Shown here: piece after piece, positions 11,175 through 15,614 of the stretch
How the letters are laid out: every line of letters starts with the position of its first letter
Numbering within the stretch: the first letter of the stretch is position 1
DNA from: Candidatus Micrarchaeaceae archaeon
GTDB taxonomy: Archaea > Micrarchaeota > Micrarchaeia > Micrarchaeales > CABMGC01
DNA length: 29,827 nt
Direction of reading: 5' to 3'
NCBI GenBank assembly: GCA_038882355.1
Contig: JAVZOJ010000001.1
Span: 1-29,827 of the forward strand
Made by a program: the position numbers and the translations under genes
Notes under the pieces: generated by a model
Databases searched by the model: none
What the model saw: only the letters and a program-made list of their open reading frames with translations
Told to the model about the DNA's origin: nothing

Positions 11175-12074
11175 ATGAAAGCATTGCTGATGTCCTACGG
11201 CAGCCCTAAAGAAATAAGCAGAGAAGAGATTAGAAGATATTATACAAATGTAAGGCACGGGGCTGAGCCAAGCGAAGAGCTTCTGAATGATCTTTTCAGA
11301 AGGTACAGTGCAATAGGAGGCGCTACACCTCTTGAAAAGGTCACATATTCGATAGTGAGAAAGGTAAATGAAAGGCTCGGGAAAGAGATAGCAGTGCCTG
11401 CATTTAGGCACTCATTTCCATTTATAAAAGATGCAATAGAAAACATTGAAGAAAAGGATATGGTCTTTTCCTTTCCTCTTGTTCCGCATAAGAGCTCATT
11501 GACTCTAAGCCTTTACCACGAAGAGGTATATGAATATGCAAAAAAGGAAGGATTCAAGTCTGTCGCTTTCTCAAAGGGCTTTGCGGACAACAAAATATTC
11601 CAGGAAGCCTATGCAAAAGAGATAGCGAAGCTGAATGAAGACGCATTTACAATATTTACAGCACACAGCATACCGATAAACAGGCTAATGGTCAAAGAAG
11701 ACCCGTATTTTGAAGACCTGAAGAGATCGGCAGATGGAATAGCGCGCATCGCGAAGATCCACGATTATGCAATCGCGTTTCAAAGTGCAGGAAGAACTAA
11801 TGACATATGGCTTGGACCCACTGTGGAAGAAACAATCGACATGCTTATAGAAAAAGGAGTAAAAAGGTTCTTGATTGTACCCCAAGGGTTCCTTATAGAC
11901 AACCTTGAAACATTATATGACATCGATATTGAACTGAAAGAAAAATACAAAGGAAAGGCAGAAATAAAAAGGGCAAGCTGTGTAAATGATTCAGAAGACA
12001 TTATAAGAATGATTTGCGAGATTTTAGAGAGGCTGGAGAAGATCCAGGTCCAAGGAGCTGCTTCGCTCTTCTGA
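11175..12074 (+). CDS. cpfC: Ferrochelatase (coproporphyrin ferrochelatase CpfC/HemH)
   Basis: LLMSYGSP, RRYSAIGGATPL, FTAHSIP, FQSAGRTNDIWLGP, GFLIDNLETLYDID; GAGGTGA ribosome site upstream. Confidence 0.93.
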   Translation: MKALLMSYGSPKEISREEIRRYYTNVRHGAEPSEELLNDLFRRYSAIGGATPLEKVTYSIVRKVNERLGKEIAVPAFRHSFPFIKDAIENIEEKDMVFSFPLVPHKSSLTLSLYHEEVYEYAKKEGFKSVAFSKGFADNKIFQEAYAKEIAKLNEDAFTIFTAHSIPINRLMVKEDPYFEDLKRSADGIARIAKIHDYAIAFQSAGRTNDIWLGPTVEETIDMLIEKGVKRFLIVPQGFLIDNLETLYDIDIELKEKYKGKAEIKRASCVNDSEDIIRMICEILERLEKIQVQGAASLF

Positions 12075-13043
12075 ATACTCTTTCTTTTCCGCAAGCTTCA
12101 TCTCTACCCCTGTAATTAGGCTCATCACCCTTATCTCGTCTTTTAGCTCAGGCAGAAGCCTTGCTCCAAAGATTACATTTGCGTCTGGGGCCAGCTCAGA
12201 AGTCACGCCTTCGCCTATCTGCCTTGCTTCGTCGATTGTTAGCGCATATCCAGATGTTATATGGACAAGCGCTCCCTTTGCGCCCTTATAATCTACTGAA
12301 AGAAGCGGATGGCTCCTTGTAGATCTAATCGCTTGCTCGACCCTGTCGTTCCCTGCTCCGCTCCCTATGCTTATTACTGCTGTTCCGCTGTTTAGGAGCA
12401 CGCTTCTCAGGTCTGCATAATCGAGCTGTATGAGGCTAGGGAAGGATATTGTGTCTGCAATGCCCTTTACTGCATTTCCTATGATTGTATCTACTGCTTC
12501 AAACGCTTTTTCGAGAGGAAGGTTCGGAACATAGCTTAGCAACTTTTCATTTTCTATAACGATGGTTGAGTCTACCTCCTTTACCAGCTCCTTTAATCCT
12601 TCATCGGCAGTAGCCCTCTTATTCTTTTCCATTTGGAAAGGGTATGTAACGATCGCAACCACCAAAGCGCCAAGCTCTTTCGCTATCCTTCCTATTACTG
12701 GCGCTGCGCCTGTGCCTGTTCCTCCTCCCATTCCTGCGCACAGAAATACGAGGTTATATCCTTCAAGAGCAGCAATGACTTGGTCTTTGCTTATCTCTAC
12801 GCACCTTTTTGCTATTTCCGGGAATCCGCCTGCACCGAGGCCGTTTGTTATCTCTTTTCCGATCAGCAGCTTTTTGTGTGCTTTGGTAGTAGACCTAAGG
12901 TGAAGAAGGTCAGTATTTATTGCAATGGTCTCTGCGCTCTTTATGTTCGAGTTGTACAGCCTCGTTACTGCGTTGCACCCTTGGCCGCCTACTCCTACAA
13001 CGGCAATTCTTGCGCCTTGGAATGTGTCAAATTCGTCTTCCAT
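12024..13043 (-). CDS. ftsZ: Cell division GTPase FtsZ, FtsZ2-like paralog A (divergent)
   Basis: GVGGQGCNAV, INTD, GLGAGG, signature GMGGGTGTGAAPV; FtsZ2-type YVPNLP, PSLIQLDYAD and HPLLSVDYKGA. Confidence 0.95.
   Translation of the reverse strand: MEDEFDTFQGARIAVVGVGGQGCNAVTRLYNSNIKSAETIAINTDLLHLRSTTKAHKKLLIGKEITNGLGAGGFPEIAKRCVEISKDQVIAALEGYNLVFLCAGMGGGTGTGAAPVIGRIAKELGALVVAIVTYPFQMEKNKRATADEGLKELVKEVDSTIVIENEKLLSYVPNLPLEKAFEAVDTIIGNAVKGIADTISFPSLIQLDYADLRSVLLNSGTAVISIGSGAGNDRVEQAIRSTRSHPLLSVDYKGAKGALVHITSGYALTIDEARQIGEGVTSELAPDANVIFGARLLPELKDEIRVMSLITGVEMKLAEKKEYSEERSSSLDLDLLQPL
12697..12752. repeat. 56-bp perfect direct repeat, copy 1 (in ftsZ paralog A)
   Basis: ACTGGCGCTGCGCCTGTGCCTGTTCCTCCTCCCATTCCTGCGCACAGAAATACGAG, identical to 13719-13774 (checked base by base). 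Confidence 0.97.
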
Positions 13044-13054
13044 GCTCTTTCACC

Positions 13055-14098
13055 TTATATAAAGTCTAGGCTTGCATTATGGCTTTCACTCTTTTCTGAA
13101 ATCTTTCCTACAATGCTTCCTCCCTTCACTCCTGTAATTATTGCAACGATTTCCAGCTGGTCTTCCATCCCTGGCATTATTCTTGCTCCAAACTTTATCG
13201 TAGCAGATGGACTCATACGCTCAGAGATAAGCGATCCTGCCCTTATTGCATCGCCTAGGGTCAGGTCTCTTGAGCCGGTAATATGGAGCAAGCCTCCTTT
13301 CGCGTCTTCAAAGTCTACGTCCAAGAGCTTGTTCTTCATTACTCCCTCTACCGCAGCCTCAACCTTTCCGGCTCCCTTTCCTGTGCCTACTGATATGAAT
13401 CCAACTTCTCCTCTGCTCATAACCGCTTTTACATCTGCAAAGTCTATGCGTATAAGGCTTTCTTGCGTTATTGTCCACACAAGGCCGATTATCGCCTTTG
13501 CAAGAATGCTATCTGCCATCTCAAACGCAGTGTTCATCGGACTGTTTGCAAAGGCTTTTACTACTCTGTTGTTATCTAGGATAATTACGCTGTCGCAATA
13601 CTTTCTTAGCTCATTTATCCCCGCCTCTGCATTCACCTTTCTTTGCCTCTCCAAATCGAAAGGATATGTAACCATAGCCATTACAATAGCTCCTTCCTCC
13701 TTTGCAACTTGCGCAATGACTGGCGCTGCGCCTGTGCCTGTTCCTCCTCCCATTCCTGCGCACAGAAATACGAGATGGGAACCTTTGAGCACATCGCTTA
13801 TCAGCTTCCTGTCAGCCTCAGCTGCCTTTCTCCCTATCATTGGATCTCCTCCTGCGCCGAGACCCCTTGTTATTCCTTTTCCAATAAGGACTTTCTTTAT
13901 TCTGTCATCTATGATCCTAAAGTGTTGAACATCTGTATTCACAGCAACTAGCTCAGTTCCTTTTACTCCCATATTCAGGAGTCTATTCACTGTGTTGCTT
14001 CCTCCTCCACCAACGCCTACTGTCACAATCTTTATTTGTGGAATCTCGTCCACAGCTTCGCTATTAGAACCCAAAAATTCTGTTCCAACGTCGGACAT
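13055..14098 (-). CDS. ftsZ: Cell division GTPase FtsZ, FtsZ2-like paralog B
   Basis: GVGGGGSNTVNRL, VNTD, GLGAGGDP, GMGGGTGTGAAPV, PFDLERQR, LDNNR, ESLIRIDFAD. Start reassigned to ATG 14098 (GGCGAT upstream, TATA 32 nt upstream). An 11-nt spacer containing GGTGA links it to paralog A. Confidence 0.95.
   Translation of the reverse strand: MSDVGTEFLGSNSEAVDEIPQIKIVTVGVGGGGSNTVNRLLNMGVKGTELVAVNTDVQHFRIIDDRIKKVLIGKGITRGLGAGGDPMIGRKAAEADRKLISDVLKGSHLVFLCAGMGGGTGTGAAPVIAQVAKEEGAIVMAMVTYPFDLERQRKVNAEAGINELRKYCDSVIILDNNRVVKAFANSPMNTAFEMADSILAKAIIGLVWTITQESLIRIDFADVKAVMSRGEVGFISVGTGKGAGKVEAAVEGVMKNKLLDVDFEDAKGGLLHITGSRDLTLGDAIRAGSLISERMSPSATIKFGARIMPGMEDQLEIVAIITGVKGGSIVGKISEKSESHNASLDFI
13719..13774. 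repeat. 56-bp perfect direct repeat, copy 2 (in ftsZ paralog B)
   Basis: Identical to 12697-12752, 1022 bp apart, in the same codon register. Confidence 0.97.
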
Positions 14099-14130
14099 TC
14101 TGATCGCCCATTTACAATATACCAAGAAAT

Positions 14131-14146
14131 ATTTAAAAGCTTTTTC
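14131..14146 (-). promoter_or_regulatory. BRE-TATA promoter of the ftsZ-ftsZ operon
   Basis: Minus strand GAAAAAGC-TTTTAAAT, 32 nt upstream of ATG 14098. Confidence 0.65.
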
Positions 14147-14217: not shown

Positions 14218-14940
14218 TTATAAATTTTCAGGCGCATAAATATTTAATCCGCTAGTTGTTATTTCATATGGAGCTGTGGCCCTGCTGTGGTTAATGCCTC
14301 TCATCTTTATTACTTCCATCCCCAGCATTCGCTTGTCCTTTTCCCCCATCTGGTACATGGCAATAATTCCGTCGAATAGAAAATCGTCTTCCTTGAATGA
14401 GAGATCAGACCTTTCAGGAGAATGCATCTCCTTTGTCAATATTGAGGTGACTTTGAGTCTCTTCAAGTTTCCTATAAATACAAGCATATTCCTTCTGTAT
14501 ACAATCCTATTTTCCATAATCAGCTCAAATATGGACAAAGAATCTACGACGATTCTTTTTGCATTGTATGTCTCTATCAAACTCTCTATTTCTGCCACTA
14601 CTTTGCTGAATTCATAGCCAGTACGCGTTTCGTCAGTGTCTCTTATTATTCTAGAAGGGTCTGCGCCATCTATTATAAGAAGGTTTTTAGAAATAAGGTC
14701 ATCGATGTCTGTGAAGTCTTTGAAGGTGTTTTTTGCATTCTTTATTACGTCTTCAGTCGACTCTTCCAATGCGAAGAATATGCTGCATGCACCGGCTTTG
14801 GCAGACCTATATGCAAATTCAAAAGAAAGGAGAGTCTTTCCGGATCCGGGACTTCCTGTTACTATTACTTGATTACTTTCAGGTATTCCGCCACCCAAGA
14901 GTGTATCAAGGCCCTTTATATTCGTTGGTATGACCTGCAT
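14218..14940 (-). CDS. Single-domain KaiC-like / RAD55-family ATPase
   Basis: IPTNIKGLDTLLGGGIP, Walker A GSPGSGKT, FALEE, Walker B IVVDSLS, FDGII, IKMRG (Arg finger). Confidence 0.92.
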   Translation of the reverse strand: MQVIPTNIKGLDTLLGGGIPESNQVIVTGSPGSGKTLLSFEFAYRSAKAGACSIFFALEESTEDVIKNAKNTFKDFTDIDDLISKNLLIIDGADPSRIIRDTDETRTGYEFSKVVAEIESLIETYNAKRIVVDSLSIFELIMENRIVYRRNMLVFIGNLKRLKVTSILTKEMHSPERSDLSFKEDDFLFDGIIAMYQMGEKDKRMLGMEVIKMRGINHSRATAPYEITTSGLNIYAPENL

Positions 14941-15064: not shown

Positions 15065-15095
15065 GAAAGTGAAGCAATTAGATATGGTCAATTCC

Positions 15096-15614
15096 ATGGT
15101 ATTTGGAAAAGGAAAGCTGTGCTTCGCAGGAAAAAGATTGCAGAGCGCGATGGAATACCTGACGACCTATGGATGGGCAATTCTTATTATTGCAATAGTT
15201 CTTGGAGTTCTTGTCTCTCTGGGCTTGTTCTCCCCTGGCAGGCTGGCTCCAAACCAATGCCTAGTAGAGGCAGGGTTTACGTGCCTGCAGGTTTACCTAA
15301 GCGCAAATGGGCTGCTAACTGTAAACATAGAGCAGACTACAAGCACACCAATTAATGTTACAGGAATAGAATGTGTGAACAACGTTACATTTGCTTATAT
15401 GCAGACGCCTTACAATCCGCCATCAAATCAAATAAACATAAATATAGGGGGAAATTATACGTTCTCCGTATTTTGCAAGAATAGCGCGAATGGGGCAGTC
15501 ATTTCAGGAAATCCTGGCTCTCTTTTTCAAGGCTACTTTATAATGAATTACACAGACATAACTACAGGATTTTCCCACGTGCTTTATGGGAAGATTTCTG
15601 TGAAGTACAGCTAA
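15096..15614 (+). CDS. Class III signal peptide (type IV pilin-like) protein
   Basis: GKRL-QSAMEYLTTYGWAILIIAIVLGVLVSLGLFSP: basic residues, Glu at +5 and a hydrophobic helix, followed by Cys pairs and N-glycosylation sequons. Start uncertain (15069, 15084 or 15096). Confidence 0.8.
   Translation: MVFGKGKLCFAGKRLQSAMEYLTTYGWAILIIAIVLGVLVSLGLFSPGRLAPNQCLVEAGFTCLQVYLSANGLLTVNIEQTTSTPINVTGIECVNNVTFAYMQTPYNPPSNQININIGGNYTFSVFCKNSANGAVISGNPGSLFQGYFIMNYTDITTGFSHVLYGKISVKYS

Follow-up and report, generated by a model that had tools for sequence, protein, structure and literature searches.

What can an FtsZ protein still do when it has lost the asparagine of its T7 loop, a residue that is among the few conserved across FtsZ and that belongs to the K+/Mg2+ catalytic machinery in published work? 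The question is raised by two adjacent genes, here called A and B, on contig JAVZOJ010000001.1, which was analysed over its whole length of 29,827 bp (the window) and is contig 1 of a metagenome-assembled genome (MAG; GCA_038882355.1; 549,520 bp in 57 contigs, 88.7% complete) of a tiny symbiotic archaeon of the Micrarchaeota. This MAG is the sole member of its genus among the genomes compared and has the smallest genome among its relatives. The original prediction regarded A and B as a duplicated, co-evolved FtsZ2-like pair that may form an obligate alternating heteropolymer or have altered GTPase kinetics; taken as a whole, that interpretation is partly supported. The loss of the T7 asparagine in both A and B is private to this genome, and the B/A pair itself is ancient and shared by the order Micrarchaeales at large.

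Both genes are encoded on the minus strand with intact open reading frames (ORFs), B (13055..14098; 347 amino acids) lying first and A (12024..13043; 339 amino acids) second, 11 nt apart, and thus form the co-oriented, operon-like pair that had been predicted. The start codon of B is the ATG at 14098, with which the consensus N-terminus of the B family agrees; the two proteins are 43% identical. A and B are bona fide FtsZ proteins of the FtsZ2-like type. Each possesses the Pfam domains Tubulin (PF00091) and FtsZ_C (PF12327); each scores above the curated cut-off of 295.2 bits for the ftsZ model TIGR00065 (A 381.5 bits, B 343.4 bits); and each contains the GTP-binding loops T1 (GxGGxGxN; GVGGQGCN in A, GVGGGGSN in B) and T4 (GGGTG[ST]G; GMGGGTGTG in both). 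AlphaFold monomer models have a mean predicted local distance difference test score (pLDDT) of 79 for A and 72 for B, and the top five Swiss-Prot matches of these models are FtsZ2 proteins of Methanocaldococcus jannaschii, Halobacterium, Haloferax and Archaeoglobus (43-52% identity), with FtsZ1 ranking lower. Membership of CetZ, which has a tubulin-like T1 loop and no FtsZ_C domain, does not apply to A or B, which have FtsZ_C and match FtsZ rather than CetZ in PDB and Swiss-Prot searches. Nor does one paralogue group with FtsZ1: in a tree of 84 representatives of 50%-identity clusters, built without named FtsZ2 and CetZ outgroups, A and B fall together with a further paralogue, D, in one clade (Shimodaira-Hasegawa-like approximate likelihood ratio test, SH-aLRT, 96) apart from the FtsZ1 clade. 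All near homologues of A and B belong to Micrarchaeota/Micrarchaeia; the genes are members of a known family, and a tandem pair of them is ordinary for the order. The source genome encodes three FtsZ proteins in all. The third (contig 4, C4; L001:979-2043, minus strand) has the canonical T7 loop LVNLDFAD and matches M. jannaschii FtsZ1 structures at 388 bits, versus 276 for A and 258 for B, and is therefore identified as FtsZ1; a single sepF gene is located on contig 44. Thus, both ftsZ1 and sepF are found elsewhere in the genome.

The T7 feature of FtsZ, NxDxx[D/E], in the loop that sets off GTP hydrolysis, is incomplete in A (QLDYAD) and in B (RIDFAD), where both acidic residues are retained and the asparagine is gone, and complete in their orthologues. 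Codon 206 of A is CAG, placing glutamine at the asparagine position (SLIQLDYAD; 12426..12428, minus strand), and codon 217 of B is CGC, placing arginine at the position equivalent to N207 of Escherichia coli FtsZ and N208 of Staphylococcus aureus FtsZ (SaFtsZ) (SLIRIDFAD; 13448..13450, minus strand); the coordinates and residues predicted for these substitutions, as well as the retention of two aspartates, are exact. This loop of B has a further change four residues ahead of Arg217: codon 213 is GAA (13460..13462, minus strand), giving glutamate where 98 of 98 FtsZ proteins of relatives have proline. The comparison set for relatives comprises 40 related genomes from 37 other genera; the T7 asparagine is kept in all 98 of their FtsZ proteins, which represent four paralogue families, as well as in 119/119 of the nearest homologues of A and 119/119 of those of B. 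Because the asparagine is universal among these proteins, the deviation is real and is not a family trait; far from being common, the double loss is novel as a natural variant and has the support of one MAG.

That assembly or consensus errors, or a chimeric MAG contig, produced the odd codons is highly improbable. The source is a single MAG, available as assembled sequence, and no closer relative is present in any of the collections searched (best matches 68% and 73%); against an artefact, each codon change requires two nucleotide substitutions from AAY, which is atypical for error, the codons lie in genes that are coherently diverged throughout, and the 29.8-kb contig has a gene content normal for Micrarchaeota.

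Absence of the T7 asparagine is rare in FtsZ more widely: among the 150 best representatives of 50%-identity clusters, 144 of 155 domains have it and 11 do not. One variant with glutamine at this site, a chromosomal archaeal FtsZ, is found on four independent contigs, and replacement of asparagine by glutamine is therefore tolerated in nature. A homologue search restricted to the T7-loop region of B returned only 3 candidates. Glycine occupies the asparagine position in two FtsZ homologues (P0377, P0285; L134-L137), which are encoded amid small ORFs and AAA, SMC_N-like and CARF/Csa3-type genes, surroundings that may be mobile-element or defence-island contexts.

The pair itself did not arise in this genome. 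In 29/29 related loci examined A comes immediately after B and is read in the same direction, and most relatives possess four FtsZ homologues: B, A, D (at a separate locus) and FtsZ1. The first glycine-rich loop of A does read GGQG (GVGGQGCN), as had been noted, and this is the norm in A orthologues rather than a peculiarity. Gene context bears on the link to SepF, the membrane anchor associated with archaeal FtsZ2: in most relatives sepF lies 2.5-6 kb beyond A; for example, the gene order in one of them (G003; L132, G003:C3:104000-115000; also L131) is B, A, aIF5A, ribosomal protein S24e, a CPBP/Rce1-like protease, a SpoU methylase and a divergent sepF. The block is split in the source genome, where sepF is on another contig, a 4-kb one (C44, L004) that also carries the SpoU and CPBP genes. 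Pende et al. reported that multiple copies (two or more) of FtsZ1 and FtsZ2 are frequent and that, in a few DPANN archaea, ftsZ has sepF as a neighbour; no description of the B-then-A operon was found in the literature searched. Paralogue D (L035-L054; e.g. G010:C1:22940-23905) is about 50% identical to B, has a C-terminal GLGxL peptide, and has lysine at the position of SaFtsZ Q48. No trace of it is present in the 57 contigs of the source assembly, for which loss and an assembly gap are not distinguishable; contig C51 ends right at the orthologue of its left neighbour, and synteny on the right side is not conserved.

The A and B genes of this genome have diverged unusually far, as judged by the identity of the source genome to its family-level relatives compared with the identity among the same relatives. 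These values are 0.70 versus 0.84 for B (lowest median of a relative 0.81), 0.62 versus 0.72 for A (0.68) and 0.60 versus 0.69 for SepF (0.63); for the controls they are 0.74 versus 0.77 for FtsZ1 (0.75) and 0.65 versus 0.68 for an aminoacyl-tRNA synthetase (0.63). B, A and SepF are thus outliers, with the synthetase in the normal range and FtsZ1 borderline-normal. Terminal branch lengths are 0.77 for A, 0.48 for B and 0.23 for FtsZ1, with an overall median of 0.21. Because A, B and SepF are accelerated but FtsZ1 and the synthetase are not, the FtsZ2-like/SepF module rather than the whole genome has shifted. The T7 changes, being private to this one long-branch genome, cannot define the partnership of A and B.

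A 56-bp tract of A that spans the T4 signature (12697..12752, minus strand; LVFLCAGMGGGTGTGAAPV) is identical to the matching tract of B (13719..13774, minus strand), whereas the DNA identity of the two genes outside it is only about 50-55%. Within the tract A encodes B-type residues (LVFLCAG, versus LVFVAAG in the A family), and the presence of this B-type LC in an identical stretch indicates gene conversion from B to A. Rate covariation specific to A and B was not found among relatives by mirror-tree analysis, in which the A-B correlation is 0.78-0.79, that of A with FtsZ1 0.85-0.86 and that of B with FtsZ1 0.80-0.81, and phylogeny dominates.

Besides the T7 asparagine, few of the positions invariant in the superfamily have changed. 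Of 45 columns invariant across the 98 FtsZ proteins of relatives, 42 are kept in A, which has changed the arginine of the T5/H5 ExxR motif, the T7 asparagine and a glycine, and 42 are kept in B, which has changed L179V, P213E and N217R. FtsZ1 of the source genome has one changed invariant column, P211S, in which serine replaces the T7-loop proline; S. aureus FtsZ natively has serine there. The T7 loop, which holds 5 of the 45 columns, accounts for 4 of these 7 changes, one of the four being P211S of FtsZ1 (binomial p about 0.004, post hoc). Judged within its own family, each of A and B has changed 14 columns whose invariance is at least 99%, and these changes cluster in T5/H5 and T7/H8 of A and in H6/T6, T7/H8 and H10/S9 of B, the elements being assigned from the secondary structure of the AlphaFold models and not from a filament model. 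In the established structure of the FtsZ filament, these elements constitute the longitudinal interface. In residues 179-186 of B (H6/T6, top face; 13541..13564, minus strand) the family sequence LVkLVPNLP has become VVKAFANSP, with four otherwise invariant residues changed, and in residues 142-143 of A (T5/H5; 12615..12620, minus strand) the Arg-Lys of the family is Lys-Arg. The arginine at 142-143 is the counterpart of SaFtsZ R143 and M. jannaschii FtsZ (MjFtsZ) R169, and which residue matches depends on alignment and gap placement; a firm claim that R142K of A copies the SaFtsZ mutation R143K was therefore rejected, since the change is an Arg-Lys/Lys-Arg swap and HMMER aligns Arg143 to MjFtsZ R169. 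Many of the replacements in A and B are conservative, that of asparagine by glutamine included, and the ORF lengths are typical of the families. At the C-terminus, B and FtsZ1 have tails typical of their families, and the peptide of A departs from its family motif.

Alteration of interface elements in both proteins (T5/H5 and T7 in A; T6, T7, H8 and H10 in B) is one of several observations that agree with an obligate alternating A/B heteropolymer, built on the logic of alpha/beta-tubulin or BtubA/B, in which each T7 loop would be co-adapted to the nucleotide pocket of the partner. The operon order kept throughout the order, with its apparent translational coupling, and the gene-conversion tract that joins A and B agree with it as well, as does a natural fusion of two FtsZ2-like domains in one protein of 826 amino acids, beside a third ftsZ, in another archaeal lineage. 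Such a polymer is nevertheless unlikely, and nothing specific points to it: A and B keep both catalytic aspartates and a full GTP pocket; in all relatives, too, the catalytic T7 loop and the GTP pocket of both proteins are complete, with no split into catalytic and non-catalytic subunits; the A-B correlation does not exceed that of either protein with FtsZ1; and each family has a distinct C-terminal peptide, which hints at separate partners no less than at a joint polymer. The fusion protein (L141:4001-7670; GCA_009995055.1; also JGI 3300025786) has two complete FtsZ2-like domains with a Q/P-rich linker between them and is present in two independent assemblies; the ftsZ after it encodes 350 amino acids.

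Published work on SaFtsZ offers the closest guide to what the T7 changes might do. The T7 asparagine has been described as conserved throughout FtsZ (PMC8456036; bioRxiv 10.1101/677963). In SaFtsZ the side chain of N208 coordinates K+ within the T7 loop and forms hydrogen bonds with D46 and Q48 of the subunit below; in a transition-state analogue it contacts the Mg2+ shell, and it is linked to the water network of Mg2+ and the gamma-phosphate (PMC8936486). The N208L mutation abolishes assembly, and Q48A and R143K retain assembly with GTPase activity about 6-fold lower and stabilised filaments (PMC8936486). Of the original prediction, altered GTPase kinetics is the element to which published mutants lend the most support (PMC8936486).

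The reading that we favour over decay, with moderate confidence, is that A and B remain a functional pair that has been re-tuned towards slower hydrolysis and/or a changed dependence on cations. They are the local copies of the old Micrarchaeales operon, maintained beside a separate FtsZ1 and, in most relatives, D, and in this one strongly reduced lineage the FtsZ2-like/SepF module has outpaced the remainder of the genome in its evolution. Because every glycine-rich loop and both catalytic aspartates are intact, A and B are expected still to bind GTP and to polymerise; because their ORFs are intact and full-length in a reduced genome, these loops and aspartates are kept, and many replacements are conservative, both are probably still functional and under selection. 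Hydrolysis may be slowed, or K+ may no longer be needed in the usual way, or both. Gln206 of A would keep the amide, one methylene further out, whereas Arg217 of B, which cannot ligate a cation, could occupy the cation site itself, conceivably with the new Glu213 as counter-charge; more stable filaments would be the expected outcome. The replacements probably re-tune or slow the filament dynamics of the pair and do not make it a new kind of system.

Several points weigh against re-tuning. Replacement of asparagine by arginine could equally inactivate the protein, since N208L abolishes SaFtsZ assembly. The AlphaFold monomer pLDDT is below 50 at the T7 loop of A (residues 202-206) and averages about 63-67 in the T7 region of B, and the sequence is known from one assembly, that of the only MAG of its genus. 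With three changes each in 45 columns, chance would give A and B a changed column in common in about 19% of cases, so that the coincidence in the same column is not significant alone.

Relaxed constraint is a possible, rather doubtful, account of the same facts: with FtsZ1 carrying division, the A/B pair and SepF would be becoming dispensable or of lesser importance, and the T7 changes would be damage that is tolerated while GTPase or polymer function is being lost. It would explain why each of A and B has changed 14 nearly invariant columns of its family, why the acceleration is limited to A, B and SepF in the smallest genome among relatives, and why the synteny with sepF is broken and the C-terminal peptide of A is off its family motif; the loss of assembly in SaFtsZ N208L fits as well. 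It does not readily explain why both ORFs are intact and full-length despite strong genome reduction, with all glycine-rich loops and both catalytic aspartates retained, many replacements conservative (Asn to Gln among them), the C-terminal peptide of B still family-typical and the Shine-Dalgarno-like coupling site preserved. At the opposite extreme, a naturally re-engineered active site, with Arg217/Glu213 as a tethered cation in B and a weakened K+ site in A (Gln206), might allow the two proteins to co-assemble into a slow-hydrolysing, cation-independent polymer of the FtsZ2 type, the order-wide operon near sepF then representing an undescribed archaeal FtsZ heteropolymer; this proposal is likewise unlikely.

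Candidate expression signals lie just before the two genes. A Shine-Dalgarno-like GGTGA (13050..13054, minus strand), recognised by reading the sequence, overlaps the stop codon of B 6 nt before the ATG of A and suggests translational coupling of A to B. A TATA-like box, TTTTAAATATTT (14127..14138, minus strand), recognised in the same way about 30-40 nt upstream of the ATG of B, is the probable promoter of the pair's own. The gene upstream of B, encoding a KaiC-like ATPase (14218..14940, minus strand), was rejected as a member of the operon; none of the 29 related loci has it beside the pair, and, as a neighbour not kept in relatives, it probably lies outside the B/A unit. Divergent from it is a gene of 181 amino acids (15069-15614, plus strand), a 50%-identical homologue of which is located directly upstream of paralogue D in one relative (G017; L078:4264-4758). 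On the other side, A adjoins a heme gene cassette in the source genome: the ferrochelatase gene (11175..12074, plus strand) is convergent with A and overlaps its last 51 nt, so that the sequence for the atypical C-terminal tail of A has the final part of the ferrochelatase gene on its other strand. Long ORFs antisense to the pair (e.g. 12633-13928, plus strand) were taken as by-products of the coding strand.

The locus amounts to a natural experiment in which two probably co-transcribed FtsZ2-like paralogues replace the T7 asparagine while FtsZ1 keeps it, and it bears both on how much GTP turnover the archaeal division ring needs and on whether a side chain can replace a monovalent cation. Up to four FtsZ paralogues are maintained in Micrarchaeales whose genomes are below 1 Mb, and two of them form the fixed B-then-A operon next to sepF; this operon is a concrete candidate for co-assembly of paralogues in archaea, and the comparative result may have wider use.

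Among known systems, archaeal FtsZ2 (Haloferax volcanii HVO_0581 / D4GSH7, M. jannaschii Q58039) resembles A and B in fold, in the pair of domains and in sequence (44-52% identity, above FtsZ1), and likewise co-exists with a separate FtsZ1 and SepF, the pair of relatives lying near sepF. Unlike it, the source genome has two FtsZ2-like genes in one operon, and its relatives have three FtsZ2-like genes; the C-terminal peptide differs from one paralogue family to the next; and the T7 asparagine is glutamine in A and arginine in B of the source genome. The SaFtsZ mutants N208L, Q48A and R143K (Ruiz et al. 2022, PMC8936486) concern the same K+-ligating T7 asparagine that is changed in A and B, and possibly the R143 neighbourhood in A, and by this likeness GTP hydrolysis would be expected to be lost or slowed and the stability of the filaments to be altered; in contrast to those mutations, the changes in A and B are natural, are to glutamine and arginine rather than leucine, and occur in archaeal FtsZ2-like proteins together with other interface changes. 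Neither A nor B has lost its catalytic acidic residues, and both are archaeal proteins of the FtsZ2 type, which sets them apart from plastid FtsZ1/FtsZ2, alpha/beta-tubulin and BtubA/B; what they have in common with those systems is that paralogous GTPases of the tubulin fold are kept as a pair and may co-assemble.

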